Source of the DNA: Candidatus Eiseniibacteriota bacterium
GTDB lineage: Bacteria; Arandabacterota; Arandabacteria; Arandabacterales; Arandabacteraceae
NCBI GenBank assembly: GCA_043808325.1
Contig: JAZDEY010000037.1
Coordinates: 19,623-83,622, forward strand
Direction of reading: 5' to 3'
Length of the DNA: 64,000 nucleotides
Part shown: one piece after another, positions 2,038-58,593 of the stretch
How positions within the stretch are numbered: position 1 is the stretch's first letter
Layout: each line of letters starts with the position of its first letter
Made by a program: the position numbers and the translations under genes
Notes under the pieces: generated by a model
The model's database searches: none
What the model saw: only the letters and a program-made list of their open reading frames with translations
What the model was told of the DNA's origin: nothing

Positions 2038-3561
2038 TCACCCCGACCGGGCGGAATCGCTCCGCGCCACCAACTGCCTCGCTCGGACCAGGATCCGGCG
2101 TGCCTCTCCATAGACTTTGTCCCTCTCCTCGACCGATATGATCCACGTTTTGCGGATGCAGATGTACACGATCAGGCCCACGATCGGAACCGCCAGAAGA
2201 GGCGGCATCAGCAAGACAAAGGCCAGCAGGCACGTGACCACCGTTCGCTTGGTCACGGGGAGCCCGAACCTGTGGCACAAGGCGACAACGATACACCACA
2301 TCAGAAAGTAAGACACCATTGTGGCGACTGCAGCTCCGACCATGCCCAGGCGCGGAATCAGCAGGAGGTTGAGAATGATGGTAGCCGGCATTGCAATTGA
2401 GAACGCTATCGCGGAAACATACGTCTTCTCAATCAGGGGCGGATAGACACCAAACAACCAAACCAGTGTCGTGTAAAGGTAGAAGACTACCAAGAACGGC
2501 AGCACTCTTGCGCCCGGAGCGTAGTCGGCGCCCAGCACCACCGTTATGAACCACTTCCCGAGCACCACCAGAACCAGGCCTATCACAAGCAGGATGATCG
2601 CAGTAACCCTCAGGGCACCGTCCAGATCCTTCAGGGCCTTCTCCCTTTGACCCATCTCCCAGGTTGCGCTCAGGTGGGGGTAAACTACATTGCAGATCGC
2701 GAGTCCGACCGCAGACATGCTCTCGCTCAGGTTGACCGTGGCCGAATAGATCCCCTGATCCGACGTGTTCATCAGATGCTGAAGGCTGAACCTGTCGACA
2801 TACTGAAAGATCTGAGCGAGGATCGGGGTGACCGCAAACCAGACTGTGAACCTCAGCAGACGCCGATAGAATGCGGTCTCTACTATCGCTTCGGGCACCG
2901 GCTCCACGGACCTCGCGTACCGCAGCAGTAGGGGGAGAAAAATCACCACAGCGCCAAAAGCCGAGATCACAAAACCAAGAATCCCCATGGCCGCCGACCG
3001 GGATACCACCACCAACGCAATCCCTGCAACCGCATAGATGGCAACCTGGCCGGATTCGGCCAGGCGGCCGGCTCGAAAGAGCTTCAGTCCCATAAATGTA
3101 CTGGTCAGGTTTCGCAGCAGAAGGAACGCCGGTATACCCATGGCGCTAACGATAATAACGTCAGTGTGTGACGCGTTTCCGTAAATCAGTCTTGAGAAGA
3201 AAGACGGTCTGACCAGTACTACTGCGGTCAGCAGCACCGACAGGGCAATGGTAAGGACGTAGGTCTTCCTAAGGTAGGATCGAAGTCCCCCCCTCATCGC
3301 GTAACGAGGGGCATACCTCATGAACGCTGACGGAACACCGAGGCTCGCGATCATACCCAGCAGGGGGACAAGGAAGAGGCCCAGCGTATAGATTCCGTAC
3401 TCAGTGGTCCCGAGCAGTCGCGCAAAGACTATTCCCCTTGCGAACGAGACCACCCTATCGATAAACACCAGGAAAAGGACCAAACCGATAGAGGCCGCCA
3501 TCCGGTCCTTTGACAGGAACCAGCCTTGGAGTCCCTTGCTTTCCTCTGTGGAGGGCTGCAT
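2038..3561 (-). CDS. wzx: Wzx-type oligosaccharide flippase (MOP superfamily)
   Basis: 507 aa, about 12-14 hydrophobic segments, ARLLGTTEYGIY N-terminal and LIPRLGMVGAAVAT C-terminal patterns, polysaccharide locus context. Confidence 0.85.
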   Translation of the reverse strand: MQPSTEESKGLQGWFLSKDRMAASIGLVLFLVFIDRVVSFARGIVFARLLGTTEYGIYTLGLFLVPLLGMIASLGVPSAFMRYAPRYAMRGGLRSYLRKTYVLTIALSVLLTAVVLVRPSFFSRLIYGNASHTDVIIVSAMGIPAFLLLRNLTSTFMGLKLFRAGRLAESGQVAIYAVAGIALVVVSRSAAMGILGFVISAFGAVVIFLPLLLRYARSVEPVPEAIVETAFYRRLLRFTVWFAVTPILAQIFQYVDRFSLQHLMNTSDQGIYSATVNLSESMSAVGLAICNVVYPHLSATWEMGQREKALKDLDGALRVTAIILLVIGLVLVVLGKWFITVVLGADYAPGARVLPFLVVFYLYTTLVWLFGVYPPLIEKTYVSAIAFSIAMPATIILNLLLIPRLGMVGAAVATMVSYFLMWCIVVALCHRFGLPVTKRTVVTCLLAFVLLMPPLLAVPIVGLIVYICIRKTWIISVEERDKVYGEARRILVRARQLVARSDSARSG

Positions 3562-3570
3562 AGATAGAGG

Positions 3571-3600
3571 ATACTATTGATCGAAGGCGGAGGCTGTCAA
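3571..3600 (-). promoter_or_regulatory. sigma70 promoter for the flippase, nearly leaderless
   Basis: TTGACA (3600-3595), 18 bp, TAGTAT (3576-3571); only 9 nt to the ATG and no SD. Confidence 0.5.
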
Positions 3601-3726
3601 CATCATTCCGGCGCTTCGCGGAAATAGAACGGGGCTGCGGGAACGAGGAGGGCGAGGGTGGTGCCCGCGCCGCAGACCTTACTGCATCGAACTCGGGGCG
3701 CGCTTCGATCCTCGGGATCATCGGGC

Positions 3727-3756
3727 TTTACATCCGTCCCCCCCGTGTGCTACCCT
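3727..3756 (+). promoter_or_regulatory. Possible sigma70 promoter for the GT4-deacetylase-ligase operon
   Basis: TTTACA (3727-3732), 18 bp, TG-c-TACCCT (3751-3756). Confidence 0.4.
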
Positions 3757-3850
3757 TCACCTCTGGCTGGCAAGCGTGCAGTCTGCCGCGGCCCGATCGC
3801 GGCAGCGGCACGAGGCAGCGCTTCCGGGCGGGCTCGCAAGAAGGTATCGG

Positions 3851-5035
3851 ATGGCAAAGCGGCAAATCGAAGCAAGCGGCAGGAAGATCAGAGTCTGCCT
3901 CGTGATTCCCAAACTGGAAATGGGTGGAGCCGAGGTCGAGGTGCTATGCCTTATCAGGCACCTGGATAAGTCCCGCTTCGACGTATCCCTGCTATGCCTT
4001 GCCTCAGGAGACTGTGAAATGGAAAGAGAGGCCCGGCAGCACCTCGAGGCCTTTGCCACGGTTGGATTCCGCTCGAGGTACTTTCCGCTGTCCTTCGCCA
4101 AAATGGTCGCCTGGCTTCGTCGTGGCAGTTATGACGTCGTTCACTGCCATTTGCCTGTCGCCGATGTGATAGGCAGATTTGCAGGCTGGTTTGCGGGGGT
4201 CCCCGTGCTCGTCACGACGGAGCACGGGAAATACATCTGTAAGGCCTGGTACCACCTGCTCTTGGATCGCTTGCTTGATCCCCTGACCGGCATGCGAATA
4301 TGCGTGAGTCAGGACATCCTGGACATTCGCGCCCGGCGCGAGGGCACCCCTCTATCCAAGCTAGTCCGAATCCCCAACGGTATTGAGACCATGAAGTTTA
4401 GAAGCCCCGGGAGAGACCGGGCGTCGGTAATGGCTGAGTTCGGCTGGGCGGCTCCGGATCCTTTGGTTATATCAGTGGGACGGCTCGCGCCTGAAAAGAA
4501 TCATGGAGTGCTCCTCGAAGCGATTGCTCGGATTGGCCCTAGGCACCCTCAGGCGAGATGCTTGCTGGTCGGCAGCGGGCCGTGCAGCGCCGAGATTCTC
4601 GCTGAGGTCGACTCCCTGGGCCTCACGGGCCGGGTGAAGTTGGCCGGCTCCCGCAATGATGTTCCCGATCTGCTCGCGGCCGCAGACATATTTGTTCTTG
4701 CATCACTCAAGGAGGGCCTGCCGGTCTCGTTGCTCGAAGCAATGGCCGCCGGAAAGGCGGTAGTGGTCACATCGGTTGGCGGCATGCCCGAGGTAATCAC
4801 TGATGGCGACAATGGGCTGGTCGTCCCTTGCGGAGACACAGACGCGCTTGCGGATGCGATCGACAGACTCCTGCGGGACGGAGATCTCCGAAAGGCCTTT
4901 GGGGAGGCCGTGAGAGCCAAGGCTGAGAAGGAATTCGACATCCAGCACGTGGCGGATGAGATCGGGCGTGTCTACACCGACCTTTACGGGAGAAAGCGGC
5001 GGGTCAGAGGGCTACGCGACAAGGAGGCCGAATGA
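3851..5035 (+). CDS. Glycosyltransferase family 4
   Basis: GGAEVEV N-terminal motif, SVGRLAPEKNH, SLKEGLPVSLLEAMA. ATG 3851 preferred; the ORF track opens at 3776. Confidence 0.92.
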   Translation: MAKRQIEASGRKIRVCLVIPKLEMGGAEVEVLCLIRHLDKSRFDVSLLCLASGDCEMEREARQHLEAFATVGFRSRYFPLSFAKMVAWLRRGSYDVVHCHLPVADVIGRFAGWFAGVPVLVTTEHGKYICKAWYHLLLDRLLDPLTGMRICVSQDILDIRARREGTPLSKLVRIPNGIETMKFRSPGRDRASVMAEFGWAAPDPLVISVGRLAPEKNHGVLLEAIARIGPRHPQARCLLVGSGPCSAEILAEVDSLGLTGRVKLAGSRNDVPDLLAAADIFVLASLKEGLPVSLLEAMAAGKAVVVTSVGGMPEVITDGDNGLVVPCGDTDALADAIDRLLRDGDLRKAFGEAVRAKAEKEFDIQHVADEIGRVYTDLYGRKRRVRGLRDKEAE

Positions 5036-6225
5036 GCCCTCAAGGAATCCCGGTTGTGATGTACCACAGCGTGGGCAGAGATAGGCCCGATTGGATATGG
5101 AATTACTTGATTACGCCCGCCGACATCTTCGATGGCCAGATGCGGCTCCTCAAGGAGTCGGGGTGGACCGCAATCTCGCTGGATGTTCTCCATTCCCATA
5201 TGTCCAAGGGCACGCCGGTCCCGGAGAGATCGGTGGTCCTGACCTTCGACGACGGATACGTGGATAATTGGGTGTACGCCTTCCCGATTCTCCGGAAATA
5301 CGGCCATCATGCCGTCATCTGGGTCAGCACGGATTTTGTCGATCCTTGCAAGGAGCCCCGGCTGAACCTCGAGGATGTCTGGGCCGGTAAGATCGGCGAG
5401 GATCGGCTGGATCCGCGGGGTTACCTCTCTTGGGCCGAAATGGGAGAGATGGTACGAGGAGGCCTCATAGAGGTACAGAGCCATGCCAAGACACACACCT
5501 GGTACCCCAGCGGTCCTGAGATTATCGACTATCACAGACCCATAGGGATCGACGGCTATCAGTTCCCCCCCTGGCTCGCCTGGAATCGGTTCCCCGAAAG
5601 AAAGTACCAGAGCCTGAGTGTCAGGCTGGATCAGGAGATTCCATATGGGACACCGATCTACAGTCATCAGAAGTCTCTCGTAGTCCGTCGCTACGTCGAG
5701 GATGCGGACCTCACTGCCCACCTCACCCAGGAAGTGAGCACAAACGGCGGGTCGCAGTTCTTCGAGCGGCCTGGCTGGTGGGAAAAGCTGCGCGCGATTA
5801 CGGATACCCCCCGGGCGGACAGATTCGAGACCGACGAAGAACATCAGGCCAGGGTGACGGATGAGTTGACCGAATCACGGAGGCTGATTGAAGACAACCT
5901 CGGAACCGCGGTCAGTTTCCTGTGTTGGCCTGGAGGCGGCTATGACCCTGTGACGCTTAAAATCGCCCGTCAAGCGGGCTATCTGGCGACAACGACCCAT
6001 TACGAGGATCGCAACAGACGAAACGTGCCTGGCCAGAATCCAAGTGAGATCAACCGAATGGGATGCGGGGCGCCTTGTGTATGGCGAGGACGAGTCTTCC
6101 GCCGGACCGACCCGGAGTTCTTTCTGGCGGGGCTGCAATATTTCGCCGGAGACCGAAAATCGTTGTGGAAACTGCGCCGGCTTAAGTTAAAATACCTGGC
6201 ACGGTACACCTTGAGGGGACAGTGA
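5032..6225 (+). CDS. Polysaccharide deacetylase (CE4/NodB, IcaB/PgaB-like) with a large insertion
   Basis: VMYHSV, LTFDDGY, QSHAKTH and LCWPGG motifs; ATGA overlap with the GT4 stop. Confidence 0.88.
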   Translation: MSPQGIPVVMYHSVGRDRPDWIWNYLITPADIFDGQMRLLKESGWTAISLDVLHSHMSKGTPVPERSVVLTFDDGYVDNWVYAFPILRKYGHHAVIWVSTDFVDPCKEPRLNLEDVWAGKIGEDRLDPRGYLSWAEMGEMVRGGLIEVQSHAKTHTWYPSGPEIIDYHRPIGIDGYQFPPWLAWNRFPERKYQSLSVRLDQEIPYGTPIYSHQKSLVVRRYVEDADLTAHLTQEVSTNGGSQFFERPGWWEKLRAITDTPRADRFETDEEHQARVTDELTESRRLIEDNLGTAVSFLCWPGGGYDPVTLKIARQAGYLATTTHYEDRNRRNVPGQNPSEINRMGCGAPCVWRGRVFRRTDPEFFLAGLQYFAGDRKSLWKLRRLKLKYLARYTLRGQ

Positions 6226-6249
6226 TAATCTAGCAAGAGGATCCGAATC

Positions 6250-7971
6250 ATGTTGCCGCCTCTTTCACAGGCTTTGGTCAGGCACTTCATATATCCCATC
6301 TATCGTGGCCTGCGCCACGACCGGCTGACTGAGATCCGACGGGATGCCGAGAAACATCAGTGGCTATCTTCCGAGGATCTCGAGACCCTTCAGTGGCGGC
6401 GGATAGCCGATTTTCTCGCGCAGATCACTACCCACGTACCCCACTACCACAATCTCTTCAAGGAAGCCGGGCTTGATCCTAGAGCGATACGCAGCCCAAA
6501 GGATTTCCTGAGTATCCCATTGCTTACAAAGCAAGACATTCGTCGTGTGGGAAGCCGCATCATCACCCAGGACCCTTCGAGGAGAGGCTTTAAGTCCAAC
6601 ACCAGCGGCTCGACCGGAGAGCCTCTTTTCTTCTACTGTGACGTGTCCGCAGGGCCCTTGAGGCGAGCATTCAGCGCGCTCGGCTATCGGTGGGCCGGAA
6701 TCGACATCGGAGACCGGATTGCTTACATATCAGGTTTCAATCTCGACAAACCCTTGAAAGAGCGTTTGGCGGACGGGGTAAAGAACTACTTCAACAACAG
6801 GGCTTTCCTTTCATCCTTCAACATGTCCGAGGCAAGGATGCAGAAATACGCCGGGATGCTGGGGGCATTCAAGCCTGACGCGATAGACGGCTATCCCTCA
6901 GCGGTTGCATTGTTTGCTGAGTACTGCAAGAGCCATCGGATTGCGGGGATCAAGCCGCGGGCGGTCTTTGCGAGCGGCGAGAAGGGTTATCCCCATCAGA
7001 GTCAGGCCATAAAGGAGATCTTCGATTGTCCTCTGTTCGATAGATACGGGAGTAACGAATTCTCCATAACTGCGCAGGAATGCGAGCAGCACAACGGGCT
7101 GCACCTCCTTAATCAATTCCTCTATGTGGAGGTAATCCACGAGAGCGGCCGCCCGGCCGGGAGCGGTGAGATCGGAGAGATCGTCGTGACTGACCTTTCC
7201 AATCTCTACATGCCGTTCCTGAGATATCGTACCGGCGATCTCGCGGTTCCTACGGTAAGGAAGTGCCCGTGTGGGAGAGGCTCTCCCCTTCTGGATCGAA
7301 TCGAAGGCCGCACGTTCGACGTCGTGGTAACCGCGGACGGCAAGGCCGCAGGTGGTTATTTCTGGACCTATCTGTCGAGGTTCGTCCCCGGCATCAAGCA
7401 GTTCCAGATAGAACAGCGGGATCGGACCGGAGTGACCTTCAGGATAGTCCGTGGACCGGATTGGAAAGACCAGTATACCCGAGATCTTGAGAGAAAAATC
7501 AAGGAGAACCTGGGCGAGGAATTCAAGACCAGCTTCGAGATGGTCGATGACATTCCGCTGACCCCAGCCGGTAAGTTCAGGTTCATCTGGTCCAAGATCG
7601 CCGAGCGGCTCGTGGTTAAGTCCAAGATCCATAAGGCGACCGTCACCGGATCGGCACCGGACGGGATCGATTGCATCGTCGTCGACGAGGAACTCCTCGA
7701 ACTCAGCAATCTCGCGCCTTTCGAGAGGGTCCTGGTTGTCGACAACGTTAACGGCGCACGGGTCGAGACGTTCGTCGCAAAGGGCAAGAGAGGAAGCGGG
7801 GAGGTTGTGATATCGGGAGCCGGCGTACATCATATCGGCATTGGCGATGAGATAATCATCATGGCCTTTGCGTGGTCTGAGGAACCTGACAGCGTCTTTA
7901 AGAACATCCTCGTGGATGATAGGAATCGCTTCGTCCGTTACCTGGTCGAAGTTGCCGGCGAGAGGCTGTAG
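6250..7971 (+). CDS. PaaK/CapK-like adenylate-forming ligase fused to a C-terminal PanD-like domain
   Basis: ANL motifs TSGSTGEP, YGSNE, RYRTGD, EGR, TPAGKF. From about residue 451 (nt about 7600), KSKIHKATVT...DNVNGARVETF...GKRGSG...GDEIIIMAF aligns without gaps to PanD over positions 3-93. Confidence 0.88.
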   Translation: MLPPLSQALVRHFIYPIYRGLRHDRLTEIRRDAEKHQWLSSEDLETLQWRRIADFLAQITTHVPHYHNLFKEAGLDPRAIRSPKDFLSIPLLTKQDIRRVGSRIITQDPSRRGFKSNTSGSTGEPLFFYCDVSAGPLRRAFSALGYRWAGIDIGDRIAYISGFNLDKPLKERLADGVKNYFNNRAFLSSFNMSEARMQKYAGMLGAFKPDAIDGYPSAVALFAEYCKSHRIAGIKPRAVFASGEKGYPHQSQAIKEIFDCPLFDRYGSNEFSITAQECEQHNGLHLLNQFLYVEVIHESGRPAGSGEIGEIVVTDLSNLYMPFLRYRTGDLAVPTVRKCPCGRGSPLLDRIEGRTFDVVVTADGKAAGGYFWTYLSRFVPGIKQFQIEQRDRTGVTFRIVRGPDWKDQYTRDLERKIKENLGEEFKTSFEMVDDIPLTPAGKFRFIWSKIAERLVVKSKIHKATVTGSAPDGIDCIVVDEELLELSNLAPFERVLVVDNVNGARVETFVAKGKRGSGEVVISGAGVHHIGIGDEIIIMAFAWSEEPDSVFKNILVDDRNRFVRYLVEVAGERL

Positions 7972-8009
7972 GCAGTCCCGGATTGTTGTACGCGGAGCGC
8001 CGACTTGTG

Positions 8010-8018
8010 TGATATACT
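8010..8018 (+). promoter_or_regulatory. Extended -10 promoter upstream of the stand-alone panD-like gene
   Basis: TG-a-TATACT at 8010-8018; no well-spaced -35. Confidence 0.45.
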
Positions 8019-8070
8019 GAGTGTCGGAAGAATAGGTGCACCGCGTTCGGATGATCGAAAGTGAGTGGCA

Positions 8071-8430
8071 ATGAAACGACTGCTTCTCAAGTCAATGATC
8101 CTGAAGGCCACGGTAACCCAGGCTGACCTACGTTATGTGGGCAGTATCACCATAGACCAGGATCTGATCGGCAAGAGCAATCTGAGTGAGAACGAGAACG
8201 TCCTGGTGGTCGATCGGACCAACGGAAACAGACTCCAGACCTATGTGATCAAGGGTGAACGCGGAAGCGGTACAATATGCATGAACGGAGCCGCGGCACA
8301 TCTGATCAACCAGGGCGACACGATTGACATAATGGCTTTCACTTGGTCCGGCACCAACCTCCAGCCTCTTTTCATCGCCGTTGACGAGCGCAACCGTTTC
8401 GTGCGCTATGTCGAGCCCGGCAATATCTGA
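8071..8430 (+). CDS. panD: Aspartate 1-decarboxylase-like (PanD family) pyruvoyl proenzyme, atypical
   Basis: Starting at ATG 8071 the numbering matches E. coli PanD: Y22-V-G24-S25, R54, T57, Y58, N72GAAAH. K9, H11 and I86 are replaced by M, L and D. Confidence 0.9.
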   Translation: MKRLLLKSMILKATVTQADLRYVGSITIDQDLIGKSNLSENENVLVVDRTNGNRLQTYVIKGERGSGTICMNGAAAHLINQGDTIDIMAFTWSGTNLQPLFIAVDERNRFVRYVEPGNI

Positions 8431-8437
8431 GCGAGAA

Positions 8438-8594
8438 CTCTCGGGTCCAGCCGGCTTGATCTCCGGCCTGAATGGAATGATTGTTTCGCTGTCCCGTTCC
8501 GATTGGGTCACTCGTCAGAAAACGCTCACCCGTCGTGCCATTGACGCCGCAATTGCAGATCCGGAAGCGGGCTCGAGCCTGGACCCTCGGAGAG
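8438..8594. ncRNA. Candidate rod-shaped structured RNA with 6S-like architecture
   Basis: Nested imperfect inverted repeats close a central bubble: 8438-8450 with 8579-8594, 8461-8473 with 8552-8567, 8500-8508 with 8528-8535. Confidence 0.35.
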
Positions 8595-8599
8595 AAATA

Positions 8600-8674
8600 T
8601 GGAGGCGGCATCCGGATTTGAACCGGAGTATAACGGTTTTGCAGACCGTCGCCTTACCGCTTGGCTATGCCGCC
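8600..8674 (-). tRNA. tRNA-Cys(GCA)
   Basis: GGCGGCA/TGCCGCC acceptor stem, U73, encoded CCA, anticodon GCA at 8640-8642, GGTTCAAATCC T-arm. Confidence 0.97.
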
Positions 8675-8682
8675 CTAACTAA

Positions 8683-8757
8683 TGGAGCGGGAAACGGGAC
8701 TTGAACCCGCGACCATCACCTTGGCAAGGTGGCGCTCTACCACTGAGCTATTCCCGC
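8683..8757 (-). tRNA. tRNA-Gly(GCC)
   Basis: GCGGGAA/TTCCCGC acceptor stem, anticodon GCC at 8723-8725, GGTTCAAGTCC T-arm, encoded CCA. Confidence 0.97.
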
Positions 8758-9477
8758 TCAATTCGTTTTTCTGTAAAATCCTAAAATATCATAAATCTTT
8801 ATTCGAAAGAGGTCAAGTAGCATCTCTGTCGAGTCCACCACCGGATGGACCCTTGACGCTCTGGAGTTTATCCATCTTACGGGCACCTCCTTGACCTTGA
8901 GGCCGATCCGTTTGGCTATCAGAATCATCTCGACGTCAAAACTGAAGGAGTTGATGCGCTGCCGCGCGAATATCCTCCGGGCTGCATCGCCGGTCATCAG
9001 TTTGAAACCGCACTGGGTATCGATCATTCCTCTTACCAAGAGCACCTGAACCACCAGATTGAAAACGCGCCCCATCAACTCACGGTAAAAAGGCTGGTGC
9101 ACGATCACGTCGGATTCTGGCAGACTCCTCGATGCAATAACCAGATCGTGGGTTTCAACCCAGGGCAATAGCTTCTCATATTCTTCGATTGGGGTGGAGA
9201 GATCGGCATCGGAGAACAAAACCACGTCTCCCCCGGAGGCCTTGACGCCACTCCGGACCGCGGCCCCCTTGCCCATGTTCCTCGGGTTCCGAATCAACCT
9301 GATTCGGGGATCCTCTCGCGAGAATTCACCGACCGTCTCGGCCGTCCTGTCCCGGCTGCCGTCATCGGCCACCACCACCTCAAACCCGAAGGCCTTCTCT
9401 TGCATGTACCGTCGGATTTTCCGGAGGGACTCTCCTATTCTTCCCTCCTCATTGTAGGCAGGTATTACGACGGACAC
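8758..9477 (-). CDS. GT2 polyprenol/dolichyl-phosphate glycosyltransferase (ALG5-like)
   Basis: SVVIPAYNE, DDGSRD, NMGKGAAVR, DADLS, DTQCGFKL, FDVE motifs. Confidence 0.92.
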   Translation of the reverse strand: MSVVIPAYNEEGRIGESLRKIRRYMQEKAFGFEVVVADDGSRDRTAETVGEFSREDPRIRLIRNPRNMGKGAAVRSGVKASGGDVVLFSDADLSTPIEEYEKLLPWVETHDLVIASRSLPESDVIVHQPFYRELMGRVFNLVVQVLLVRGMIDTQCGFKLMTGDAARRIFARQRINSFSFDVEMILIAKRIGLKVKEVPVRWINSRASRVHPVVDSTEMLLDLFRIKIYDILGFYRKTN

Positions 9478-9487
9478 GAGGTTCGGC

Positions 9488-10984
9488 TTAACTTGCGCTC
9501 ACCACCCTTTTCCTCGCTAGCGTCGCAGCGTAGACCTCACTGTAAGCGATGGCTGATCGCTGCCACGAAAAATCCTCGGCCATGGCTCTCAGCATAAGCT
9601 TGGTCCACTGATCCTTCTTGACAAAAGCCCTTACCGCCCGCTCCAGGGTGGCGATCAAGGCCCTGGCATGATACTCTCCAAATACAAAACCCGTTGAGTC
9701 TCCGTACTCATCGAAGTCGCGGACGCTATCGGCAAGCCCCCCGGTTTTCCGAACAACTGGGACGGTCCCGTACGCCATGCTGTACATCTGGTTGAGACCG
9801 CAGGGCTCGTACTTTGACGGCATCAGGAACATGTCGCAGCCCGCCTCGATAAGATGGGCCATTTCTTCATCAAAGCCGATCGTGACCGAAATCCGGCCCG
9901 GGAAACGCTTGGCGTACGTGCAGAGAGCCTCATGATACTTCTTATCGCCGGTTCCCAGCACGACAAGGCCCAAGCCCAGGCCCATCATTGCATCCATGGA
10001 TTCCATCACTATATCGAAACCTTTCTGATCGACCATGCGGGAAACGATGCCCGCGAGTGGGGTCCCGGCATCGGCTGCCAGACCCAGGCGTCCGATCAGG
10101 TGCTGCTTACACTTGACCTTTCCATCGAGATCACGGCTCGTATACTGGCATGGAATCAGACTGTCGGCGGCCGGGTTCCACACGCTGTAGTCGGCCCCAT
10201 TGAGAATCCCAATGACGTCAGACGAACGGGACTTGAGGACACCTTCAAGACCGTGGCCGAATTCCGCAGTCTGAATCTCGCGCGCATAGGTGGGGCTTAC
10301 GGTCGTGATGGTATCCGCAAACGTGATGCCCGCTTTCATCATGTTGATGTTGCCATAGAATTCCAGCGGGCCCATCGGCCACATCAGATCTTCCCCCAAG
10401 CCCGCTTTGCGACCGACCTCCGTGGGGTAGACACCTTGATATGCCAGATTATGTATGGTGAACACCGTCCCAAGGTCCCTGAAGGCGCCCCGCTCGGCCA
10501 GCGAAGTTCTGATCCAGACCGGGATAAACCCCGCCTGATAGTCGTGGCAATGGATGACGTCGGGCCTCCACCCTGTTGCATCAACAAGCTCGAGGGCCGC
10601 TCGCGAGAAGAACAGGAAGCGCTCGGCATTGTCGTCGAAGTCTTTGCCGGTGCGAGGATCGGTGTAAATGCCTTCGCGACCAAAGAGCTGATCATTACCG
10701 ATCAAGTATACCGAGACCTTGCTCTGGGGCAGCTGGGTCCGCCGTAGGGTTGCCCTTTGCTTGATGCCGCCAAGTACGACATCCAACTTGTCGAGGCCTC
10801 TGATCTTCTCCACACCGATCTTCTTCTCTTTGATCGATCGATAGTAGGGCATAGCTATCCGGACGTCATGACCCAGATCGCAAAGCGCCTTGGGCAAAGC
10901 GCCGAGGACGTCCGCCAACCCGCCGACCTTCGCCAACGGATGGGCCTCAGCCGCGACCATGAGGATTGAGAGCTTGTTTTCCAT
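9488..10984 (-). CDS. glgA: Glycogen synthase (GT5)
   Basis: KVGGLADV, HCHDYQ, FTIHNLAYQG, MPSKYEPCGLNQM, TGGLADSV. Start set at ATG 10984 (MENKLSILMVAAE). Confidence 0.95.
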   Translation of the reverse strand: MENKLSILMVAAEAHPLAKVGGLADVLGALPKALCDLGHDVRIAMPYYRSIKEKKIGVEKIRGLDKLDVVLGGIKQRATLRRTQLPQSKVSVYLIGNDQLFGREGIYTDPRTGKDFDDNAERFLFFSRAALELVDATGWRPDVIHCHDYQAGFIPVWIRTSLAERGAFRDLGTVFTIHNLAYQGVYPTEVGRKAGLGEDLMWPMGPLEFYGNINMMKAGITFADTITTVSPTYAREIQTAEFGHGLEGVLKSRSSDVIGILNGADYSVWNPAADSLIPCQYTSRDLDGKVKCKQHLIGRLGLAADAGTPLAGIVSRMVDQKGFDIVMESMDAMMGLGLGLVVLGTGDKKYHEALCTYAKRFPGRISVTIGFDEEMAHLIEAGCDMFLMPSKYEPCGLNQMYSMAYGTVPVVRKTGGLADSVRDFDEYGDSTGFVFGEYHARALIATLERAVRAFVKKDQWTKLMLRAMAEDFSWQRSAIAYSEVYAATLARKRVVSAS

Positions 10985-11007
10985 AGGTGGGTTCCTCGTC
11001 TCTGGAA

Positions 11008-12021
11008 TCACCGCTTGAGGCTTGCGATCACGATCTCCCTCAAGTACCGACAAGCCTCCTCGGGAGCGGTGGGATTGATGTAAAAGCCCGAACCCCATTC
11101 AAAGCCTGCGACCTTGGTGAGTTTCGGTATCAATTCGATGTGCCAGTGATACCACGCCCGGTTGTCACCTTGACAGGGCAGCGTATGCAGTATGAAGTTG
11201 TAAGGAGGTCGGTTGAGCGCCGTATCCAGCTTCATCAGGATCTCCTTAAGCACCCTGGCGAGCATCTGAATGCCCGACCTGTCGATTTCCTCGAAGGCAG
11301 ATTCGTGGGACTTGGGCAGGATCCAGGTCTCGAACGGGAATCGCGGCGCAAACGGTTCGATCGCGAGGAAGGTCTCATTGGCGCTTACCACCCTGATGTC
11401 GTCGATAGTCTCCTGCGAGACGATGTCGCAGAAGATGCAACGTTCCTTGAATTCGAAGTACTTCCGGGAGTTATCGATCTCTTCACTGACCCGCTTCGGT
11501 ATGATAGGCATCGCGATCAATTGAGTGTGTGAGTGCTCAAGCGAGGCACCCGCTGCTTCACCGTGATTCTTGAATATCAGGATGTACTTGAATCTTCCGT
11601 CCCGTTTGAGGTCGATCATCCGCTCGCGCCAAGCCACTAACACCTCGACGATCGTGCCCTCATCCAGGTCACCCAGAGATTTCTCATGGTCGGGGGTTTC
11701 GATGATCACCTCGTGGGCTCCGATGCCGTTCATCTTGTCGTAAATCCCCTCACCCTGCCGGTTGAGATCCCCTTCGATCTGGAGTGCGGGGAACTTATTC
11801 GGCACGACTCTCACCCGCCAGCCGGGGGTATCTCGCGAGGTTCCGGGATTCCTAATAGCAAAGACCTCAGGCGGGGTCTTGCTCTCATTTCCGGAACAGA
11901 AAGGACAGAAGGCCGTGGATTTTGCGACGGGGACCGTAACGAAATCCGTCGGCCGTTTACCTCTCTCGGTAGATATGATCACCCACCTGCCGATGATGGG
12001 GTCTCTCCTCAATTCGGGCAT
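11008..12021 (-). CDS. galT: Galactose-1-phosphate uridylyltransferase / GalT-like nucleotidyltransferase
   Basis: MPELRRDP, CPFC, VPNKFPAL, GASLEHSHTQL (HxHxQ), YHWHIE. Confidence 0.93.
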   Translation of the reverse strand: MPELRRDPIIGRWVIISTERGKRPTDFVTVPVAKSTAFCPFCSGNESKTPPEVFAIRNPGTSRDTPGWRVRVVPNKFPALQIEGDLNRQGEGIYDKMNGIGAHEVIIETPDHEKSLGDLDEGTIVEVLVAWRERMIDLKRDGRFKYILIFKNHGEAAGASLEHSHTQLIAMPIIPKRVSEEIDNSRKYFEFKERCIFCDIVSQETIDDIRVVSANETFLAIEPFAPRFPFETWILPKSHESAFEEIDRSGIQMLARVLKEILMKLDTALNRPPYNFILHTLPCQGDNRAWYHWHIELIPKLTKVAGFEWGSGFYINPTAPEEACRYLREIVIASLKR

Positions 12022-30443: not shown

Positions 30444-31385
30444 CTAAGTCTTGGACATTATTGAGGCTATGAAGACCGGAAGCAGGATCTCATGGTTACC
30501 GGTGAAATTGTAGGTCGTTGCGCCCAGCAATCTCGGACGCTCCACTATGCTGGTCATCGGCCTATAAAGCTGCAACATATCGAAATTCGCCGTTGTGAAC
30601 TTCCCCAGGTCAGCTCCACGATTGCGTGCGATTGCCAGAGCCTTGAGGAATACCTCGGGCAGGATCACCGCAGAACCGATATTCAGGACCACACCTCCGC
30701 CGAGCCTCATTATTATCGAGGTGAAGGACCGGAAATCCTCCATCGATGCATAGCCGATCGCCCGGCCGTCGGCTTCGGCGTGCTCATGCACCACATCGGT
30801 GCCGATCGCCACATGGACCGTCACCGGGATATCAAGCTCGCAGGCTGTGGCCAGGAGGCTCACCCCCCGGTTGGGAGCGCTTGCGCCCACCAGAGCTCTG
30901 CCCAGGCCTCTACCCAGGCCAATCCCCTCCGCAAGGCAGGCACCTGCAGCGCCATTGAAGAGCTTTGCAGTCTCCTCGGTCGCACCGAACATGCCGCTCT
31001 GGAGCCCATCACCTACGTCCTCGGAAGTCTTTCCCCACATCGCTATCTCGATATCGTGTATGGCGCACGCACCATTGATCGCCAGGGCCGTGATCACCCG
31101 TCTGCGCAGGAGGTCGCATAGGAGGCCCCCCAACCCACACTTGACCACATGGGCCCCCATCATGAAAACCACGGGCCTGTGGTTCTCTCTTGCCTCAGCA
31201 ATCGATTCGCTGAGAGCCTCGAGGTCGCGGCCTCTGAGGATCCTGGGGATCATCTTCCTCATGTTCACAAACCATGAGAAGTCGTTGGGCATGGCGGCGA
31301 AATCGGCCAGCTCGACCTTGCTCTTGCGGACCGCTATCGACTCCTTCCTCTCGGAGAAAGGTCGCGCCGTCTTGTCGTCATCCAT
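30444..31385 (-). CDS. Conserved protein with probable DHS-like NAD/FAD-binding fold, function unknown
   Basis: MMGAHVVKCG, NGACAIHD, TVHVAIGTD, NIGSAVILPEVFLKA, HEILLP resemble deoxyhypusine-synthase-like proteins. Confidence 0.6.
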   Translation of the reverse strand: MDDDKTARPFSERKESIAVRKSKVELADFAAMPNDFSWFVNMRKMIPRILRGRDLEALSESIAEARENHRPVVFMMGAHVVKCGLGGLLCDLLRRRVITALAINGACAIHDIEIAMWGKTSEDVGDGLQSGMFGATEETAKLFNGAAGACLAEGIGLGRGLGRALVGASAPNRGVSLLATACELDIPVTVHVAIGTDVVHEHAEADGRAIGYASMEDFRSFTSIIMRLGGGVVLNIGSAVILPEVFLKALAIARNRGADLGKFTTANFDMLQLYRPMTSIVERPRLLGATTYNFTGNHEILLPVFIASIMSKT

Positions 31386-31400
31386 ATTTTGCCTCCATGA

Positions 31401-32156
31401 TCATTCGCCTGGCTCGATCTCCGAAAGCACCGCACTCACTGAGCCCACAATGATCTTGCCGGTCATCATCACCGGCATAAGCCGGGAGTCCTTGGTCAGC
31501 CAAACCGTCAAGCGCCCCTGGTGCTGGAAGAGCCCCGAGGCCTTAAGAATCGGCTCGACCACAAAGCATTCGAACCTGCCGGCGGGTACCGACACAGTTT
31601 CGCTCCGCAGGATCTTGACCTCAAGAGGATAGTTCTTCTTGTCCGCATGGTTCTCGATCAGGAAGGTCCTGCCTACCTCGAGCGATCTGGTCCTTAAGTA
31701 GTAGAGCGAGGTCAAAACATCCTGGACGTCGGGTGGGACTGGTATTACCGAGCTGTCGGGATAGGTTGCGGTATGGTTCTCCTGGTCGAAGACAATCACC
31801 TCGTTCTTAGTGTAATTGCCCTCTTTCAGACGTTTCTCGTACCTCAGCGTGGAAAGGCTCTCGACATCCATCATCGATATCACCGAGTCCTGAACCTCAA
31901 AGAAGAGCGAAAAGGGCATCGTCGACCTGGCCTCGGATACCACGCGGTAACACTTGCCCTGGCCGCAATCAAGGATATCGGTGACCGCCAGCGTCGCAGT
32001 GCCGGCCCTGGCGAATCCGTACCGTATCGAGTACGTAAGCCTCTCCCCCACCTTGAAAGGAACAAACGCGGGGATCACTTCCTGGGCCGGAGTCTCGACG
32101 GAGATCGTTGCCGCCACGAGATACAACGCCACCACGATAATCAGGGTTTGTCTCAT
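31401..32156 (-). CDS. DUF3108 domain exported protein
   Basis: Signal peptide, FKVGERLTYSI, QDVLTSLYYLR, VPAGRFEC, VWLTKD. Confidence 0.8.
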   Translation of the reverse strand: MRQTLIIVVALYLVAATISVETPAQEVIPAFVPFKVGERLTYSIRYGFARAGTATLAVTDILDCGQGKCYRVVSEARSTMPFSLFFEVQDSVISMMDVESLSTLRYEKRLKEGNYTKNEVIVFDQENHTATYPDSSVIPVPPDVQDVLTSLYYLRTRSLEVGRTFLIENHADKKNYPLEVKILRSETVSVPAGRFECFVVEPILKASGLFQHQGRLTVWLTKDSRLMPVMMTGKIIVGSVSAVLSEIEPGE

Positions 32157-38332: not shown

Positions 38333-40606
38333 ATGCCCTCGAGAATCCGACTGATCTTGCCGGCCTTTGCCATCGGGCTCGTCGGCACCACCGCCCAGGT
38401 TATAATCATAAGAGAGCTGCTGGTCGCCTTGACCGGCAACGAATTGACCATCGCAGTAACCCTCGCTGCATGGCTCTCGGCGGCGGCCGGCGGCAGCGCG
38501 ATATACCGAAGACTGGGCCGGGCCGGCGAGGGATCCACCGCAGAACTCCTGATTATCGCAGGACTGCTTCTGCCGTTTCAAGTGATTTCCGTGCGCTTGC
38601 TTCACCCCCTGGTCTCTTCATTCGGCGAGATTCTGGGTCCGGGGATGATACTCGCTCTCTCAGCTCTTGGGGTCCTACCCGGCGCCATGGTCCTCGGAGC
38701 GCTATTTGTGGCAATCGTCGCGGATGCCGGGGATCGAACCTCCGGGCGCCCCATTGCGCTGGTATACGGTATCGAAGCTCTGGGCTCGGGGGTAGCGGGC
38801 CTTCTTCTCAGCACATACCTTCTGGAAGCTCTGAACCCGCTTGCAGTGATTGGGCTGGCCGCGTTGGTGGGGTTGGCCGGGGGTTGGTACCTCCATTTGT
38901 CAAAGGGAGACCGACCGCGTGGGGCCTTTTCGGCGCTTGCAGCAGTGTCCCTTGCCGGGCTGGCGGTAGCGGTCGCAACCAGCGGTCGGATGGACCTTGC
39001 GAGTCGGGCGCTCCAGTGGAGACCCCTTAGAGTTGCGGAGACCAGCGATTCCAGATACGGCAATTTGGTTGTCACGAGCCGCGACAGCACCTACGACTTC
39101 TTCGAGAGCGGCACCCTTGCCTTCACGATACCCGACGCGCCATACGCCGAAGAGTGCGCCCACATTCCGTTGCTCCATCATCCCGAACCACGGCAAATAC
39201 TGGTCCTGGGTGGCGCCGGGTCGGGTGTTATCCGGGAGATACTCAAGCATGGATCGGTCAGGACGATCGACTATATAGAAATCGATCCTGCTTCCATGGC
39301 CGTCATGGAAAGGTTCTCTCCCCCCGGATCGTTGTACGGCAACAGCAGAGCCTTGGTCAATGCCCTCTACGGCGATGCCAGGGAATATGTGGCCAAGACC
39401 AGTAGCATGTATGACATCGTCATAGTCAATGTGGGCACGCCCACGACCCTCCAGCTAAACCGATACTATACGGTTGAATTCTTCCGCAGCGCCGAGAAGA
39501 TCCTCAACAGGAACGGAATCCTGTCCCTGAAGATAGCGTCGCCCGGAGCCTATGTCGGGCCCGAGCTCGGTCGCCTGGTGGCAAGCGTCACCAGCGCCTG
39601 CAAAGCGGTGCTACCCAACGTAATCGTGCTTCCCGGCGAATACATACACATCCTGGCCTCACCCGGCCTGGATCTCCGAAGCCAGACTCCGCTTGTGCTT
39701 GAACGTCTCCGCAGGCGGGCAGTTGAGGCATCCTACGTCAATGGCTTCGTACTCTGGGACAGATTCTCTCAACTGAGGATCGCTCAGCTTGACAGCGCCA
39801 TTGGCGCATACGATGACGGCCGCCCGAACTCGGACATGAAGCCTGTAACCTTCCGGCTGGCGATATCCATCTGGGAGAAGCATACCCGAGTCGGGCGAGC
39901 GGTCTCAGATCTGACATCCTGGCTCAAGCCTGAAAGGTGCCTGCTTCTGATGCTCGCCGCCTGCGTGATCACGGTCATGGTCTTCGCGCTGGTATCACGA
40001 TCAAGGCTGAATGTTGTCGCAGATCTCGCCATCCTTTACGCAATGGGTCTCACCACGATGTTTACGCTGCTCCTGGCGGTGTTGGGGTTACAGATCGTCA
40101 GCGGGTACCTTTACGGCCGGATCGCGGCCCTGATCGCGGCCTTCATGGGAGGCATGGGAACCACGTCCATGATGGCAGGCTTGAAGAGCTCTCGGCCCGG
40201 GATTAGGCGGCCGACGCCAGCCCTTATCGCGGGTCTGGCGGTCCCGCCTATTGCGGTCATACTGGCCGCGAGCCTGCTTGGGCGCGACCCGCGGGCCTTA
40301 CCTTCTCAGGCTGCCGACATCACCTTTGCGGCAGTTGCTTTCGCCACCGGGGCGCTTGGAGGATCTATCTTCGCAAGTGCCTCAACGTCCCTGGTCCGGG
40401 CCGGCAAGAGTGATGTTGCGGCGGCATCCCTTGCCTATTCGCTCGATCTCGCAGGCGCTGCCACGGCGGGTCTGGCGACGGGTTTCCTCATGATCCCTGC
40501 AATAGGCATTGCAGAATCTGCCTATGTTGTATCGATCTTCAGCCTTGTGGTTCTTGCCGGCGTCGTCATTTTGAGGAAGGTTTCTTCAGGACCTCTGCCT
40601 CATTGA
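38333..40606 (+). CDS. Membrane-embedded spermidine-synthase-like SAM-binding protein
   Basis: TM blocks flank a core with DSRYG, LVLGGAGSG, YIEIDP, GDAREY, YYTVEFF. Confidence 0.8.
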   Translation: MPSRIRLILPAFAIGLVGTTAQVIIIRELLVALTGNELTIAVTLAAWLSAAAGGSAIYRRLGRAGEGSTAELLIIAGLLLPFQVISVRLLHPLVSSFGEILGPGMILALSALGVLPGAMVLGALFVAIVADAGDRTSGRPIALVYGIEALGSGVAGLLLSTYLLEALNPLAVIGLAALVGLAGGWYLHLSKGDRPRGAFSALAAVSLAGLAVAVATSGRMDLASRALQWRPLRVAETSDSRYGNLVVTSRDSTYDFFESGTLAFTIPDAPYAEECAHIPLLHHPEPRQILVLGGAGSGVIREILKHGSVRTIDYIEIDPASMAVMERFSPPGSLYGNSRALVNALYGDAREYVAKTSSMYDIVIVNVGTPTTLQLNRYYTVEFFRSAEKILNRNGILSLKIASPGAYVGPELGRLVASVTSACKAVLPNVIVLPGEYIHILASPGLDLRSQTPLVLERLRRRAVEASYVNGFVLWDRFSQLRIAQLDSAIGAYDDGRPNSDMKPVTFRLAISIWEKHTRVGRAVSDLTSWLKPERCLLLMLAACVITVMVFALVSRSRLNVVADLAILYAMGLTTMFTLLLAVLGLQIVSGYLYGRIAALIAAFMGGMGTTSMMAGLKSSRPGIRRPTPALIAGLAVPPIAVILAASLLGRDPRALPSQAADITFAAVAFATGALGGSIFASASTSLVRAGKSDVAAASLAYSLDLAGAATAGLATGFLMIPAIGIAESAYVVSIFSLVVLAGVVILRKVSSGPLPH

Positions 40607-42095
40607 AGACTTGGGCGGAGAAGATCTGGATGGTCGCCCCCTCTCGCCAGCAACCCCTCGGCAGCCCCGCCTTGAGGCAAGTGTTGTCGAGAAACTGGTA
40701 GCGATCCCAACCGTATTCGGTCGCCACCTGAGGTAGAAGCAACCCGTGATAGAAGCCCTTCTCAAGGTAGATACCGTCCCGTCCGACCTCGATCTCTTCA
40801 GGATTGGTGATCTTCCTCAAGGGTGTCAGCACGGAAATCTCGATCTCTATTTCCTTCAGTTCCTCTATGGTCACGGCGGGAAACCTTGGGTCCTCGGTGG
40901 CCGCCGCTATCGCCATGTTCGAGATTGTCTTAACCAGAGGCTCTACGCCTACTATGTTGCCGATGCAGCCGCGCAGATCACCTCGCTCGGTCAGCGTCAC
41001 GAAGGCTCCCATCTTTTCACGCAGCAGCGGGGAGGTCGCTTTGAGCTCCGGCGCGTGCTTATCCAGGAGCGTGGCCTCAATCGCCTGCCGCGCGATACTC
41101 AGCAGCTCGGCCTTCTCACTGTGCTTGAGCCCGAGGTCGACACCCACAGCGTCCTCGGCAACAAGCGCCGCCGCGAGGTAACCGACGACGCTTGATTTGT
41201 CGCCGGTAACATCGCCCGAATTGGCGTACTTGAATACCACGCCTCTGGACGCACCAATCTCGCGAGCTGCGAGCATCACTGTCACCACCGGACCGCCTCC
41301 ACAGGCCTCGCACTGTTCAAGGTCGAGGTCACGCGCCAGACCCTCGGGGTCATAATTCCTTATGTGATCGATCACGATCTGGTCGAGACGTACTGCCTCA
41401 TTGTAGTCGTGAAAGTGCGAGAGATCGGTGCTCGCAACCAGCAGCACGTTCTTGCCTTTGACTGCGCCAGCGATCGCTTTGGCAAGCCGCCGCGCGGTTG
41501 TGATCGATTGATCTCCCATCACGATGGGCACGATTCTCAAGCCGGGCACGGTGATCTGAAGGAAGGGCAGCTGGACCTCGAGCGAGTGCTCCTGTGCTTG
41601 GGCGTCGTCCCGGAACTGGACTGAGGAATCAGCCTTCGCGATGGCGTCGGCAATGTCCCCGGCTATCTCTATTAAGCCCAATGGCGTCTTGAACCGCCCT
41701 TCGCGATAGATCGAACTTCCCTGGAAACGCATGCGATGGCTGGGAGCCACAATCACCACGGCATCGAACTGCTTGCCCTGGATCGTACGATAGCCATCGG
41801 CGGCAATCTGGCCGGAGTACATATACCCCGCGTGAGGGGAAATCAGGGCAACTATCCTGCCCCGGATTTTAGGAGGCTGCGCCTTCTCCAGCATCGATGA
41901 GACCGCCTCGCGAAGCTCCTCCGGAGTTCCTGGGTAGAACTGGCCGGCGACGGCCGGCTGTCTGATCTTGGATGATCCCATCTCAATATTCCCCCCTTCG
42001 CGGGAACCGGTCCCGCATGCGGCGCCGACAACGAGAACTGCGACCAAGACGGATGATATGCCCAGACTTCGCATGCCATGCTGCAAGGTTTTCAA
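40566..42095 (-). CDS. amrB-amrA: MEMO1 (AmrB) - AMMECR1 (AmrA) fusion with N-terminal signal-like peptide
   Basis: PAVAGQFYP, PHAGYMYSG, EHSLEVQLPF, STDLSHF, ACGGGP; then GAFVTL..LRGCIG, EDPRF, LLLPQVA. TTG 42095 follows SD AGGAGGAGG. Confidence 0.9.
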   Translation of the reverse strand: MKTLQHGMRSLGISSVLVAVLVVGAACGTGSREGGNIEMGSSKIRQPAVAGQFYPGTPEELREAVSSMLEKAQPPKIRGRIVALISPHAGYMYSGQIAADGYRTIQGKQFDAVVIVAPSHRMRFQGSSIYREGRFKTPLGLIEIAGDIADAIAKADSSVQFRDDAQAQEHSLEVQLPFLQITVPGLRIVPIVMGDQSITTARRLAKAIAGAVKGKNVLLVASTDLSHFHDYNEAVRLDQIVIDHIRNYDPEGLARDLDLEQCEACGGGPVVTVMLAAREIGASRGVVFKYANSGDVTGDKSSVVGYLAAALVAEDAVGVDLGLKHSEKAELLSIARQAIEATLLDKHAPELKATSPLLREKMGAFVTLTERGDLRGCIGNIVGVEPLVKTISNMAIAAATEDPRFPAVTIEELKEIEIEISVLTPLRKITNPEEIEVGRDGIYLEKGFYHGLLLPQVATEYGWDRYQFLDNTCLKAGLPRGCWREGATIQIFSAQVFNEAEVLKKPSSK

Positions 42096-42184
42096 TCTGA
42101 CCACCTCCTCCTACTCGCCCAGCCGGGAGGCGCCATAATCTCCTGTTCAGGACGAACTCTATCGGCCTAAGTACTTTCCCCGGC

Positions 42185-57002: not shown

Positions 57003-57028
57003 CAGAATTCCTCCATCAGCAAGGTGGC

Positions 57029-58102: not shown

Positions 58103-58593
58103 GGCTTCGAATCCTCCCTGGTCTCGAGGCTCTTGATCCGATCGCGTATCTCGGCGGCATTCTCAAAGTCTTCCTTTTCTATCGCGACCCTTAGCGCCAC
58201 CTTGAGGTCTTCGATCTCCCGTATCTTTTCGATCATTCCCTCACTCGACTGGGGACTCTTGCCTATATGAACGTTGGACCCGTGTATTCTCCTCAGGAGA
58301 GGTTTGAGTTGCTCCTTGAAGGCGCCGTAACACTCCGAACAGCCCAGCCGGCCTGTCTCACGGAATTCGGCGTAGCTCAGCCCACAGCCCTGGCACCTTG
58401 CAGTAGAGGAGCCGACCTCCTCCGCCATTCCGGCAAGGATATTGGAAATCGAGAAGGCTTGCTTCTTGGGCGACACATGAAGCCCTTTTTCAACAGCACA
58501 TTTCTCGCAAAGATTGAACTCGACCGTCTTGTCGTCCTTGATCTCTTTGTAGTGGACCTTTGCGATCTCCTTGCCACAATTGTCACAAAGCAT
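58099..58593 (-). CDS. mcsA: McsA (four CxxC, UVR domain)
   Basis: CDNC, CEKC, CQGC, GRLGCSECY, HIGKSP, EDFENAAEIRD. Confidence 0.93.
   Translation of the reverse strand: MLCDNCGKEIAKVHYKEIKDDKTVEFNLCEKCAVEKGLHVSPKKQAFSISNILAGMAEEVGSSTARCQGCGLSYAEFRETGRLGCSECYGAFKEQLKPLLRRIHGSNVHIGKSPQSSEGMIEKIREIEDLKVALRVAIEKEDFENAAEIRDRIKSLETREDSKP

Follow-up and report, generated by a model that had tools for sequence, protein, structure and literature searches.

A possible split-site aspartate decarboxylase, one half fused to a CapK-type ligase, in a glycan-related gene cassette of Candidatus Eiseniibacteriota and relatives

Aspartate 1-decarboxylase (PanD; PF02261/TIGR00223; structures 2c45, 1uhe and 1aw8) is, in its canonical form, a homotetramer whose chains each contribute both halves of the active site; Arg54 determines substrate specificity and Tyr58 serves as proton donor. 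The window analysed here, a stretch of 64,000 nucleotides (nt) of a Candidatus Eiseniibacteriota genome (GenBank assembly GCA_043808325.1, contig JAZDEY010000037.1, positions 19,623 to 83,622), carries two PanD copies in a four-gene cassette, and the halves of the site lie on two genes: a standalone PanD, which has the self-processing site as well as Thr57, Tyr58 and Asn72, and a PanD domain (PanD'), which is fused to an adenylating ligase. Both copies have the canonical domain, but Lys9, His11 and Ile86 are missing from the standalone copy, and the fused one appears from its residues unable to form the pyruvoyl group. In the published structures, Lys9* and Arg54* come from the neighbouring subunit, where Lys9* ion-pairs with the alpha-carboxylate of the substrate and Arg54* binds its beta-carboxylate, and Pyr25, Thr57 and Tyr58 belong to the catalytic chain (PMC3314653, PMC6969166); Thr57 and Asn72 act in self-processing (PMC3975893), and Lys9 and His11 are strictly conserved (PMC3314653). 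Judging from the residue pattern, we consider it probable that standalone PanD and PanD' make up a heteromeric enzyme with a split active site. Tentatively, and with somewhat less than even confidence, we propose further that an obligate heteromeric PanD, its dead half carried on a CapK-type ligase, feeds a new N-beta-alanyl (cationic) amino-sugar decoration of the envelope glycans of Krumholzibacteriota and their relatives.

A pyruvoyl-dependent decarboxylase activated allosterically by a catalytically dead paralogue is known from trypanosomatids, namely S-adenosylmethionine decarboxylase (AdoMetDC) with its prozyme. The PanD pair resembles this system in that an inactive paralogue would be needed for full activity, but it is of another fold and lineage, and PanD' is predicted to donate active-site residues and is fused to the next enzyme. 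Concerning the ligase, NatL2, AjiA1 and ClxA are condensing enzymes independent of coenzyme A (CoA); with these and with PaaK itself (structures of the group: 6tm4, 6wuq, 9s3l, 2y4o, 4r1l) it has the two-domain fold and the ANL motifs in common, but identity is only 19-24%, and those enzymes use aromatic acids and belong to secondary metabolism or catabolism. Pathways which deacetylate a sugar and then acylate it anew include NodB/NodA, LpxC/LpxD, BshA-BshB-BshC and MshA-MshB-MshC, and the cassette would follow the same logic: a glycosyltransferase places N-acetylglucosamine (GlcNAc), and the amine freed by a deacetylase then receives a new acyl or aminoacyl group. The acylating family differs from all of these, being an ANL ligase here, and the deacetylase is of the LmbE type in the Bsh and Msh pathways but of family CE4 in the cassette. 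Membership in the bacillithiol or mycothiol pathway was rejected, as the glycosyltransferase falls below the BshA and MshA cutoffs, the deacetylase is not LmbE and the ANL enzyme is not a Cys ligase, so that the likeness is one of logic only.

The preliminary description of this stretch, made from the letters alone, had taken the locus for a non-orthologous version of the adenylating enzyme and amino-acid decarboxylase (TIGR03098/TIGR03099) found together in the polysaccharide loci of the XrtA/PEP-CTERM system. The pairing of enzyme kinds is indeed alike, but it amounts to an analogy: the decarboxylase is pyruvoyl-dependent and not dependent on pyridoxal phosphate, the ligase has no TIGR03098 match at E<=0.01, an exosortase was not found among the scanned open reading frames (ORFs) of the window, and the XrtA-type matches of window genes (stp2, FemAB, Wza, chain-length) are all below cutoff. 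A literature search for TIGR03098/TIGR03099 returned no papers. Compared by description, VpsH of Vibrio cholerae is also an adenylate-forming protein resembling PaaK/CapK, and is needed for the amide attachment of an amino acid to a lipid-linked glycan prior to flipping; it is required to add glycine to the lipid-linked disaccharide of the Vibrio polysaccharide (VPS), but has neither a PanD domain nor a partner decarboxylase nor a CE4 enzyme, and links glycine through its amine to the carboxylate of a sugar (PMC13463779).

The cassette and the gene divergent from it are arranged as follows:

3776-5035, plus strand: GT4 (GT-B) glycosyltransferase, gene 1 of the cassette (Glycos_transf_1, E=4e-44)
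5032-6225, plus strand: CE4 N-deacetylase, like the N-domain of PgaB/BpsB (Polysacc_deac_1, E=7e-20)
6250-7971, plus strand: ligase::PanD' fusion of 573 amino acids (aa), with a PaaK/DVU_1553-type N-domain and Asp_decarbox
6250-7593, plus strand: PaaK/CapK-type ANL ligase part of the fusion (residues 1-448)
7594-7971, plus strand: PanD' domain, the predicted pseudo-subunit (fusion residues 449-573; Asp_decarbox E=1e-24 over residues 454-560)
8071-8430, plus strand: standalone PanD (S-type), 119 aa from ATG (ORF 8065-8430, probable ATG at 8071; TIGR00223)
2038-3561, minus strand: Wzx-type flippase, a context gene (Polysacc_synt, E=1.5e-16)

These gene and domain identities are close to certain, and profile matches together with the coordinates bear out the preliminary description in placing GT4, CE4, ligase-PanD' and PanD in one orientation, divergent from the flippase. 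The start of the CE4 gene overlaps the stop of the GT4 gene by 4 nt. A promoter and terminator scan of positions 3400-8800 performed no better than on shuffled sequence and did not help with the operon boundaries.

For residue numbering, both PanD copies were aligned to PanD of M. tuberculosis (2c45), to which the standalone copy of the window aligns without gaps; the residue tables comprise 41 distinct standalone orthologues and, for the fused domain, 48-49 sequences in one set and 111 metagenomic sequences in another. The standalone protein passes the TIGR00223 equivalog model (115.5 bits, cutoff 106) and the Pfam model (130.5 bits, cutoff 25), whereas PanD' passes the latter (86.9 bits) but not the former (71.1 bits), and thus is a member of the domain family but not an equivalog. 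In the window, the standalone copy has the Gly24-Ser25 pyruvoyl site at nt 8140-8145 and keeps Tyr22, Arg54, Thr57, Tyr58 and Asn72, but carries Met for Lys9, Leu for His11 and Asp for Ile86. PanD' keeps Lys459 (Lys9 in PanD), His461 (His11), Arg504 (Arg54) and Thr507 (Thr57), and has Asp474-Cys475 at the place of Gly24-Ser25, Phe508 at that of Tyr58 and Ser522 at that of Asn72. The two sets of sequences show the same reciprocal pattern:

Lys9: standalone 0/41 (Met in 38, Ala in 3); fused 48/48 and 111/111
His11: standalone 0/41 (Leu, Met, Ile, Val or Phe instead); fused 48/48 and 111/111
Tyr22: standalone 41/41; fused 0/48 and 1/111
Gly24: standalone 41/41; fused 0/111 (Asp in 108, Glu in 3)
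Tyr58: standalone 41/41; fused 4/111 (Phe in 93)
Asn72: standalone 41/41; fused 13/111
Arg54: standalone 41/41; fused 111/111

Ser25 and Thr57 are likewise present in 41/41 standalone sequences, and 38 of the 41 carry Asp instead of Ile86. When 1.84 billion representatives were searched exhaustively, 143 of the best 150 PanD matches kept Lys9 and His11, and PanD of the type without Lys9 and with Asp86 made up only about three clusters (P0121-P0123). One of these, P0122, has Met9 and Asp86 but still His11, an apparent intermediate which could represent a step on the path from canonical to S-type PanD.

The reciprocal loss of residues, taken together with the published assignment of these residues to subunits, leads to the prediction of an obligate heteromer in which beta-alanine is made beside the ligase. 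In such a complex, the standalone protein would give the pyruvoyl group (from Ser25), Thr57, Tyr58 and Asn72, and PanD' would give Lys9*, His11* and Arg54* across the interface. The composite site would hold every canonical aspartate-binding residue, for which reason decarboxylation of L-aspartate is the most likely reaction, and beta-alanine the rather likely product. That the fused domain would be a conserved pseudo-subunit complementing a defective standalone PanD is a point which the preliminary description had missed.

The ligase part of the fusion matches the adenylating N-domain of the PaaK/DVU_1553/FlxY type over residues 35-360, and all equivalog models of NCBIfam remain below their cutoffs: DVU_1553 (NF045666) with 148.6 bits against 300, FlxY (NF053551) with 124.7 against 520, and the PaaK models TIGR02155 and NF041878 with 74.4 against 646 and 94.6 against 700. 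No NCBIfam equivalog covers the fusion, and members of its family presently bear the names 'phenylacetate-CoA ligase' or 'aspartate 1-decarboxylase'. An alignment of 19 sequences agrees with the earlier statement that all ANL motifs are kept, including the terminal lysine: motifs A3, A5, A7, A8 (hinge) and A10 either do not vary or reach at least 90% conservation, with T118, G120 and G123 in the P-loop, Y266-G267, Y326, G329 and D330, G353-R354, and, in the C-domain, P436 and G441-K442 in 'TPAGKF', where Lys442 is the A10 lysine. Among structures, BT_0428 (PDB 4r1l) is matched at 3e-28. An AlphaFold2 model (pLDDT 84.4) aligns over about 440 columns to PaaK2, BT_0428, NatL2, AjiA1 and ClxA, the TMt values being 0.59-0.69; for PaaK2 (2y4o) and BT_0428 (4r1l), Foldseek gives E about 1e-28 and TMt 0.66-0.69. 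This indicates a complete two-domain enzyme of the PaaK type. Pfam CapK_C (PF27533) is precomputed for homologues at 45-92% identity; the local Pfam scan of the window protein gave Asp_decarbox only. The position equivalent to PanD residue 1 (residue 451) follows only nine residues after Lys442, and with a junction as tight as this the mobile C-domain of the ligase would sit directly on the decarboxylase. As a side observation, C278, H281, H285, C339 and C341 of the ligase are invariant, perhaps as ligands of a structural zinc ion; BT_0428 (4r1l) has the CxC motif as well.

Concerning the first two genes, the best NCBIfam match of GT4 is the stp2-like model TIGR03088, with 214 bits under a cutoff of 409. 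BshA (116 bits, cutoff 274), MshA (92.5 bits, cutoff 462.5) and GlcNAc-phosphatidylglycerol synthase give sub-threshold matches as well. The CE4 protein (397 aa) reaches 71.8 bits with Polysacc_deac_1 (cutoff 23.1), and its motifs MYHSV, TFDDGY and SHAKTH, the metal-binding (Asp-His-His triad) and catalytic (His/Asp) motifs of the PgaB type, are intact; it falls under the cutoff of the PgaB equivalog TIGR03938 (109 bits against 322) and matches BpsB (PDB 5bu6) at 6e-19. No signal peptide was found in CE4, and a cytoplasmic N-deacetylase is therefore to be expected.

A protein search yielded 585 relatives, and more than 100 clusters share the 573-aa fusion architecture at 45-92% identity. Fusion loci were taken from a scan of species-representative genomes, with neighbourhoods determined by ORF calling and phmmer and a threshold of 200 bits or more for orthologues of CE4 and GT4. 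The 49 loci found belong mostly to metagenome-assembled genomes (MAGs) of Krumholzibacteriota, some to Latescibacterota or Nitrospirae, and 45 of them, in which the downstream sequence is present, could be evaluated. Standalone PanD follows the fusion in 41/45, a CE4 orthologue is found in 32/45 (28 with CE4 immediately before the fusion gene, 4 with CE4 at another place in the locus), and a GT4 orthologue is present in 22 fusion loci. In one MAG, GT4 and CE4 are joined in a single gene of 797 aa (L010/L087, 7590-9983), directly upstream of the fusion and PanD. Relatives of the ligase which are 37-41% identical and without PanD' keep the order GT4-CE4-ligase (loci L052, L053, L057 and L076), so that the coupling of CE4 and ligase would be older than the fusion with PanD'. 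Dozens of independent MAGs repeat this gene order, far more than chance would produce. The four genes thus are supported as one functional unit, as the preliminary description had it.

Four fusion loci (L014, L017, L029 and L033) have no adjacent PanD. The MAG JAGLYV01 contains two fusion paralogues, one in a full cassette with PanD (L010) and one in a full exopolysaccharide (EPS) locus without PanD (L014); a single catalytic PanD may therefore be shared by both ligase fusions. Furthermore, tandem arrays of 2-4 CapK-like ligase genes occur in L074, L077 and L078 (also in L059, L067, L075 and L090), with Ignavibacteria, Zixibacteria, Dehalococcoidales and other MAGs as hosts.

As regards chemistry, the cassette might constitute a cytoplasmic unit which adds, deacetylates and re-acylates a lipid-linked sugar. 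GT4 would add an N-acetyl-hexosamine to a lipid-linked acceptor, and the PgaB-like CE4 would remove the acetyl group and leave a free amine. The two-gene pyruvoyl decarboxylase would convert L-aspartate to beta-alanine, formed only on the ligase-bound complex, and the ligase would adenylate beta-alanine and pass it to the freed amine, giving an N-(beta-alanyl)-amino sugar before the flip by Wzx. In this scheme we infer L-aspartate as the substrate, beta-alanine as that of the ligase, N-acylation as the reaction and a lipid-linked target. Acylation of the deacetylated amine is favoured because CE4 is the most constant neighbour of the ligase, and an amide-forming step is supported by the conserved gene order, by the CoA-independent condensing enzymes among the fold neighbours and by the precedent of VpsH, with which the glycan-amidating role proposed in the preliminary description would be in keeping. 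We rate it as a nearly even prospect that a lipid-linked glycan is N-beta-alanylated at a deacetylated sugar.

Several observations weigh against this proposal. Arg54 is kept in all standalone sequences, though the split-site model requires only the Arg54* of the fused domain; the Asp in place of Ile86 in the standalone protein is likewise without explanation in that model. In 13/45 loci the fusion and PanD stand without CE4 or GT4 in the available flanks, and most cassettes of Krumholzibacteriota are not situated in Wzx/Wzy/Wza loci. Literature searches did not find bacterial glycans substituted with beta-alanine, and the VpsH precedent suggests that the sugar carboxylate would be activated, not the amino acid (PMC13463779).

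This last point leads to an alternative in which the same enzymes act with reversed chemistry: the ligase adenylates the carboxylate of a uronic acid in the lipid-linked glycan, the amine of beta-alanine attacks and a uronamide results, the CE4 step being separate. VpsH, the sole PaaK/CapK-like protein with genetic and liquid chromatography-mass spectrometry evidence, is required for amidation of the carboxyl group of GulNAcA with glycine (PMC13463779), and CapK-like ligases are found in many polysaccharide loci without CE4 (L074, L077, L078 and L090). A uronamide nevertheless appears unlikely to us, as CE4 adjoins the fusion in 28 of the 45 loci and the order of the triad is kept in the unfused relatives, an arrangement most simply understood if the freed amine is the nucleophile; moreover, the conserved cassette includes neither a UDP-sugar dehydrogenase nor any other uronic-acid gene.

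A second alternative retains the chemistry of N-beta-alanylation, but assumes that the product is a small glycoside or membrane glycolipid, made by GT4, deacetylase and ligase in a route of their own with a logic like that of bacillithiol and mycothiol synthesis, and not a surface polysaccharide. It is the genomic setting which bears on this question. Most cassettes of Krumholzibacteriota lie at one syntenic non-EPS site, where PAP2 and Band_7 form one flank and peptidase M50-CBS, an aldo-keto reductase and a tricorn-like peptidase form the opposite one; GT4, CE4 and an S-adenosylmethionine (SAM) methyltransferase are variably present there, and in most MAGs this site is without a Wzx, Wzy, Wza or PGT gene. 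The cassette furthermore possesses its own single GT4, with the mentioned sub-threshold matches to BshA, MshA and GlcNAc-phosphatidylglycerol synthase. The cassette of the window, on the other hand, is divergent from Wzx and adjoins a large Wzx/Wzy-type locus, and Wzx orthologues (250-760 bits) are found beside or near the cassette in five further loci: L004 and L009 have Wzx adjoining the cassette, and the Nitrospirae loci L003, L042 and L043 have both in one EPS locus. A second fusion paralogue occurs inside complete EPS loci (L014, L029), and BshA and MshA models stay far below their cutoffs. All in all, a small glycoside or glycolipid is an improbable product.

A surface polysaccharide, which the preliminary description had named as the target of the decoration, is thus only partly supported overall: it holds for this window, and the loci of the window clade and of Nitrospirae lie beside Wzx, whereas most homologous cassettes are outside classical loci. 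That description had itself named an occurrence of the homologous fusions mainly outside polysaccharide loci as evidence against its reading, and this is partly the case, for most fusions with at least 15 kb of context lie at the non-EPS site or form a bare pair with PanD. Counts of loci outside EPS regions are approximate, since phmmer searches with single window proteins have limited sensitivity, and were cross-checked by Pfam tables for 12 contexts. The mixture of EPS and non-EPS settings indicates that the cassette is a portable and largely self-contained glycoconjugate module; outside EPS settings, the acceptor could be lipopolysaccharide (LPS), a glycolipid or a small glycoside.

Very improbable is a role in CoA and pantothenate metabolism, with the ligase as a non-orthologous pantoate-beta-alanine ligase supplied by the decarboxylase and the glycan genes as mere neighbours. 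The bare pairs of fusion and PanD in 13 of the 45 loci and the label 'aspartate 1-decarboxylase' given to fusions by NCBI would fit such a role, but panB, panC and panE are absent beside the fusion in all 12 annotated contexts and none of them is in the window; in agreement with the preliminary description, panB and panC were not found among window ORFs of at least 150 aa. The CE4 gene in 32 of the 45 loci, the GT4::CE4 fusion of one MAG and the closest unfused ligases, which lie by Wzx or in GT4-CE4-ligase triads, speak for glycan chemistry instead. The assumption that there is no heteromer at all, the standalone protein being an ordinary homotetrameric decarboxylase and PanD' a decaying remnant or a scaffold or binding domain, is most implausible: the standalone protein does pass the panD equivalog cutoff and keep Arg54, and PanD is not adjacent in four fusion loci (L014, L017, L029, L033), but a decaying remnant would not hold Lys9, His11 and Arg54 in 111/111 sequences of 45-92% identity, the standalone protein has lost exactly the two residues, Lys9 and His11, kept in 143 of the best 150 PanD representatives, and the MAG with L014 also holds a full cassette including PanD (L010). 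Coincidental adjacency with a decaying PanD' was given little weight, being contradicted by the absolute conservation of the same three residues in the fused domain.

The cassette is closed off by tRNA-Cys and tRNA-Gly genes (minus strand), and the rest of the window consists of genes for envelope biogenesis. These comprise a Wzx/Wzy-type polysaccharide locus (PGT, Wzy_C, tyrosine kinase, chain-length determinant and Wza), LPS genes (heptosyltransferases and msbA), lipid A genes (lpxK, waaA, lpxB, lpxA, lpxC-fabZ and lpxD) and the outer-membrane genes bamA and lolCDE. Inside the lipid A run, lpxC-fabZ is a bifunctional gene (49184-50533, minus strand; NF009667, 529 bits, cutoff 465). In the polysaccharide region, the GT2 gene and the FemAB-like gene are separated by glgA and a galT-like gene (9488-12021, minus strand); as called, the ORF of glgA shares 91 nt with the end of galT, and the true start of glgA therefore probably lies further downstream. 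Genes of the GSU2086 family (ArgZ-like) and of DUF3108 adjoin the heptosyltransferases both in the window (30444-32156, minus strand) and in a MAG of Krumholzibacteria (L001, 16732-18565). Also on the minus strand are a joint ORF for the AmmeMemoRadiSam system proteins B and A (40566-42104) and, in a window otherwise of diderm envelope character, mcsA and mcsB, a protein-arginine kinase pair, accompanied by a ClpB/ClpC-like AAA+ ATPase (54507-58593). The only gene of the CoA pathway in the window is coaE (dephospho-CoA kinase; 63132-63755, minus strand), 55 kb from the cassette.

All parts of the cassette are known kinds of enzymes, and what is new is the predicted split active site and the fusion to a CapK-type ligase; literature searches found no report of PanD pseudo-subunits, of PanD-ligase fusions or of PanD heteromers. 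If confirmed, the pair would be a clean natural case of a homo-oligomeric enzyme that became an obligate heteromer when its two copies lost opposite halves of the active site, with a pseudo-subunit that also ties it physically to the enzyme of the following pathway step. Confirmation would also correct the automatic annotation of the fusion as 'aspartate 1-decarboxylase' or 'phenylacetate-CoA ligase', and the standalone gene is in that case probably miscounted as housekeeping panD in metabolic reconstructions of the MAGs which carry it. For the large family of CapK-type ligases in polysaccharide loci, the cassette would provide a first functional handle, and beta-alanine would be predicted as a new glycan substituent in these poorly known phyla.

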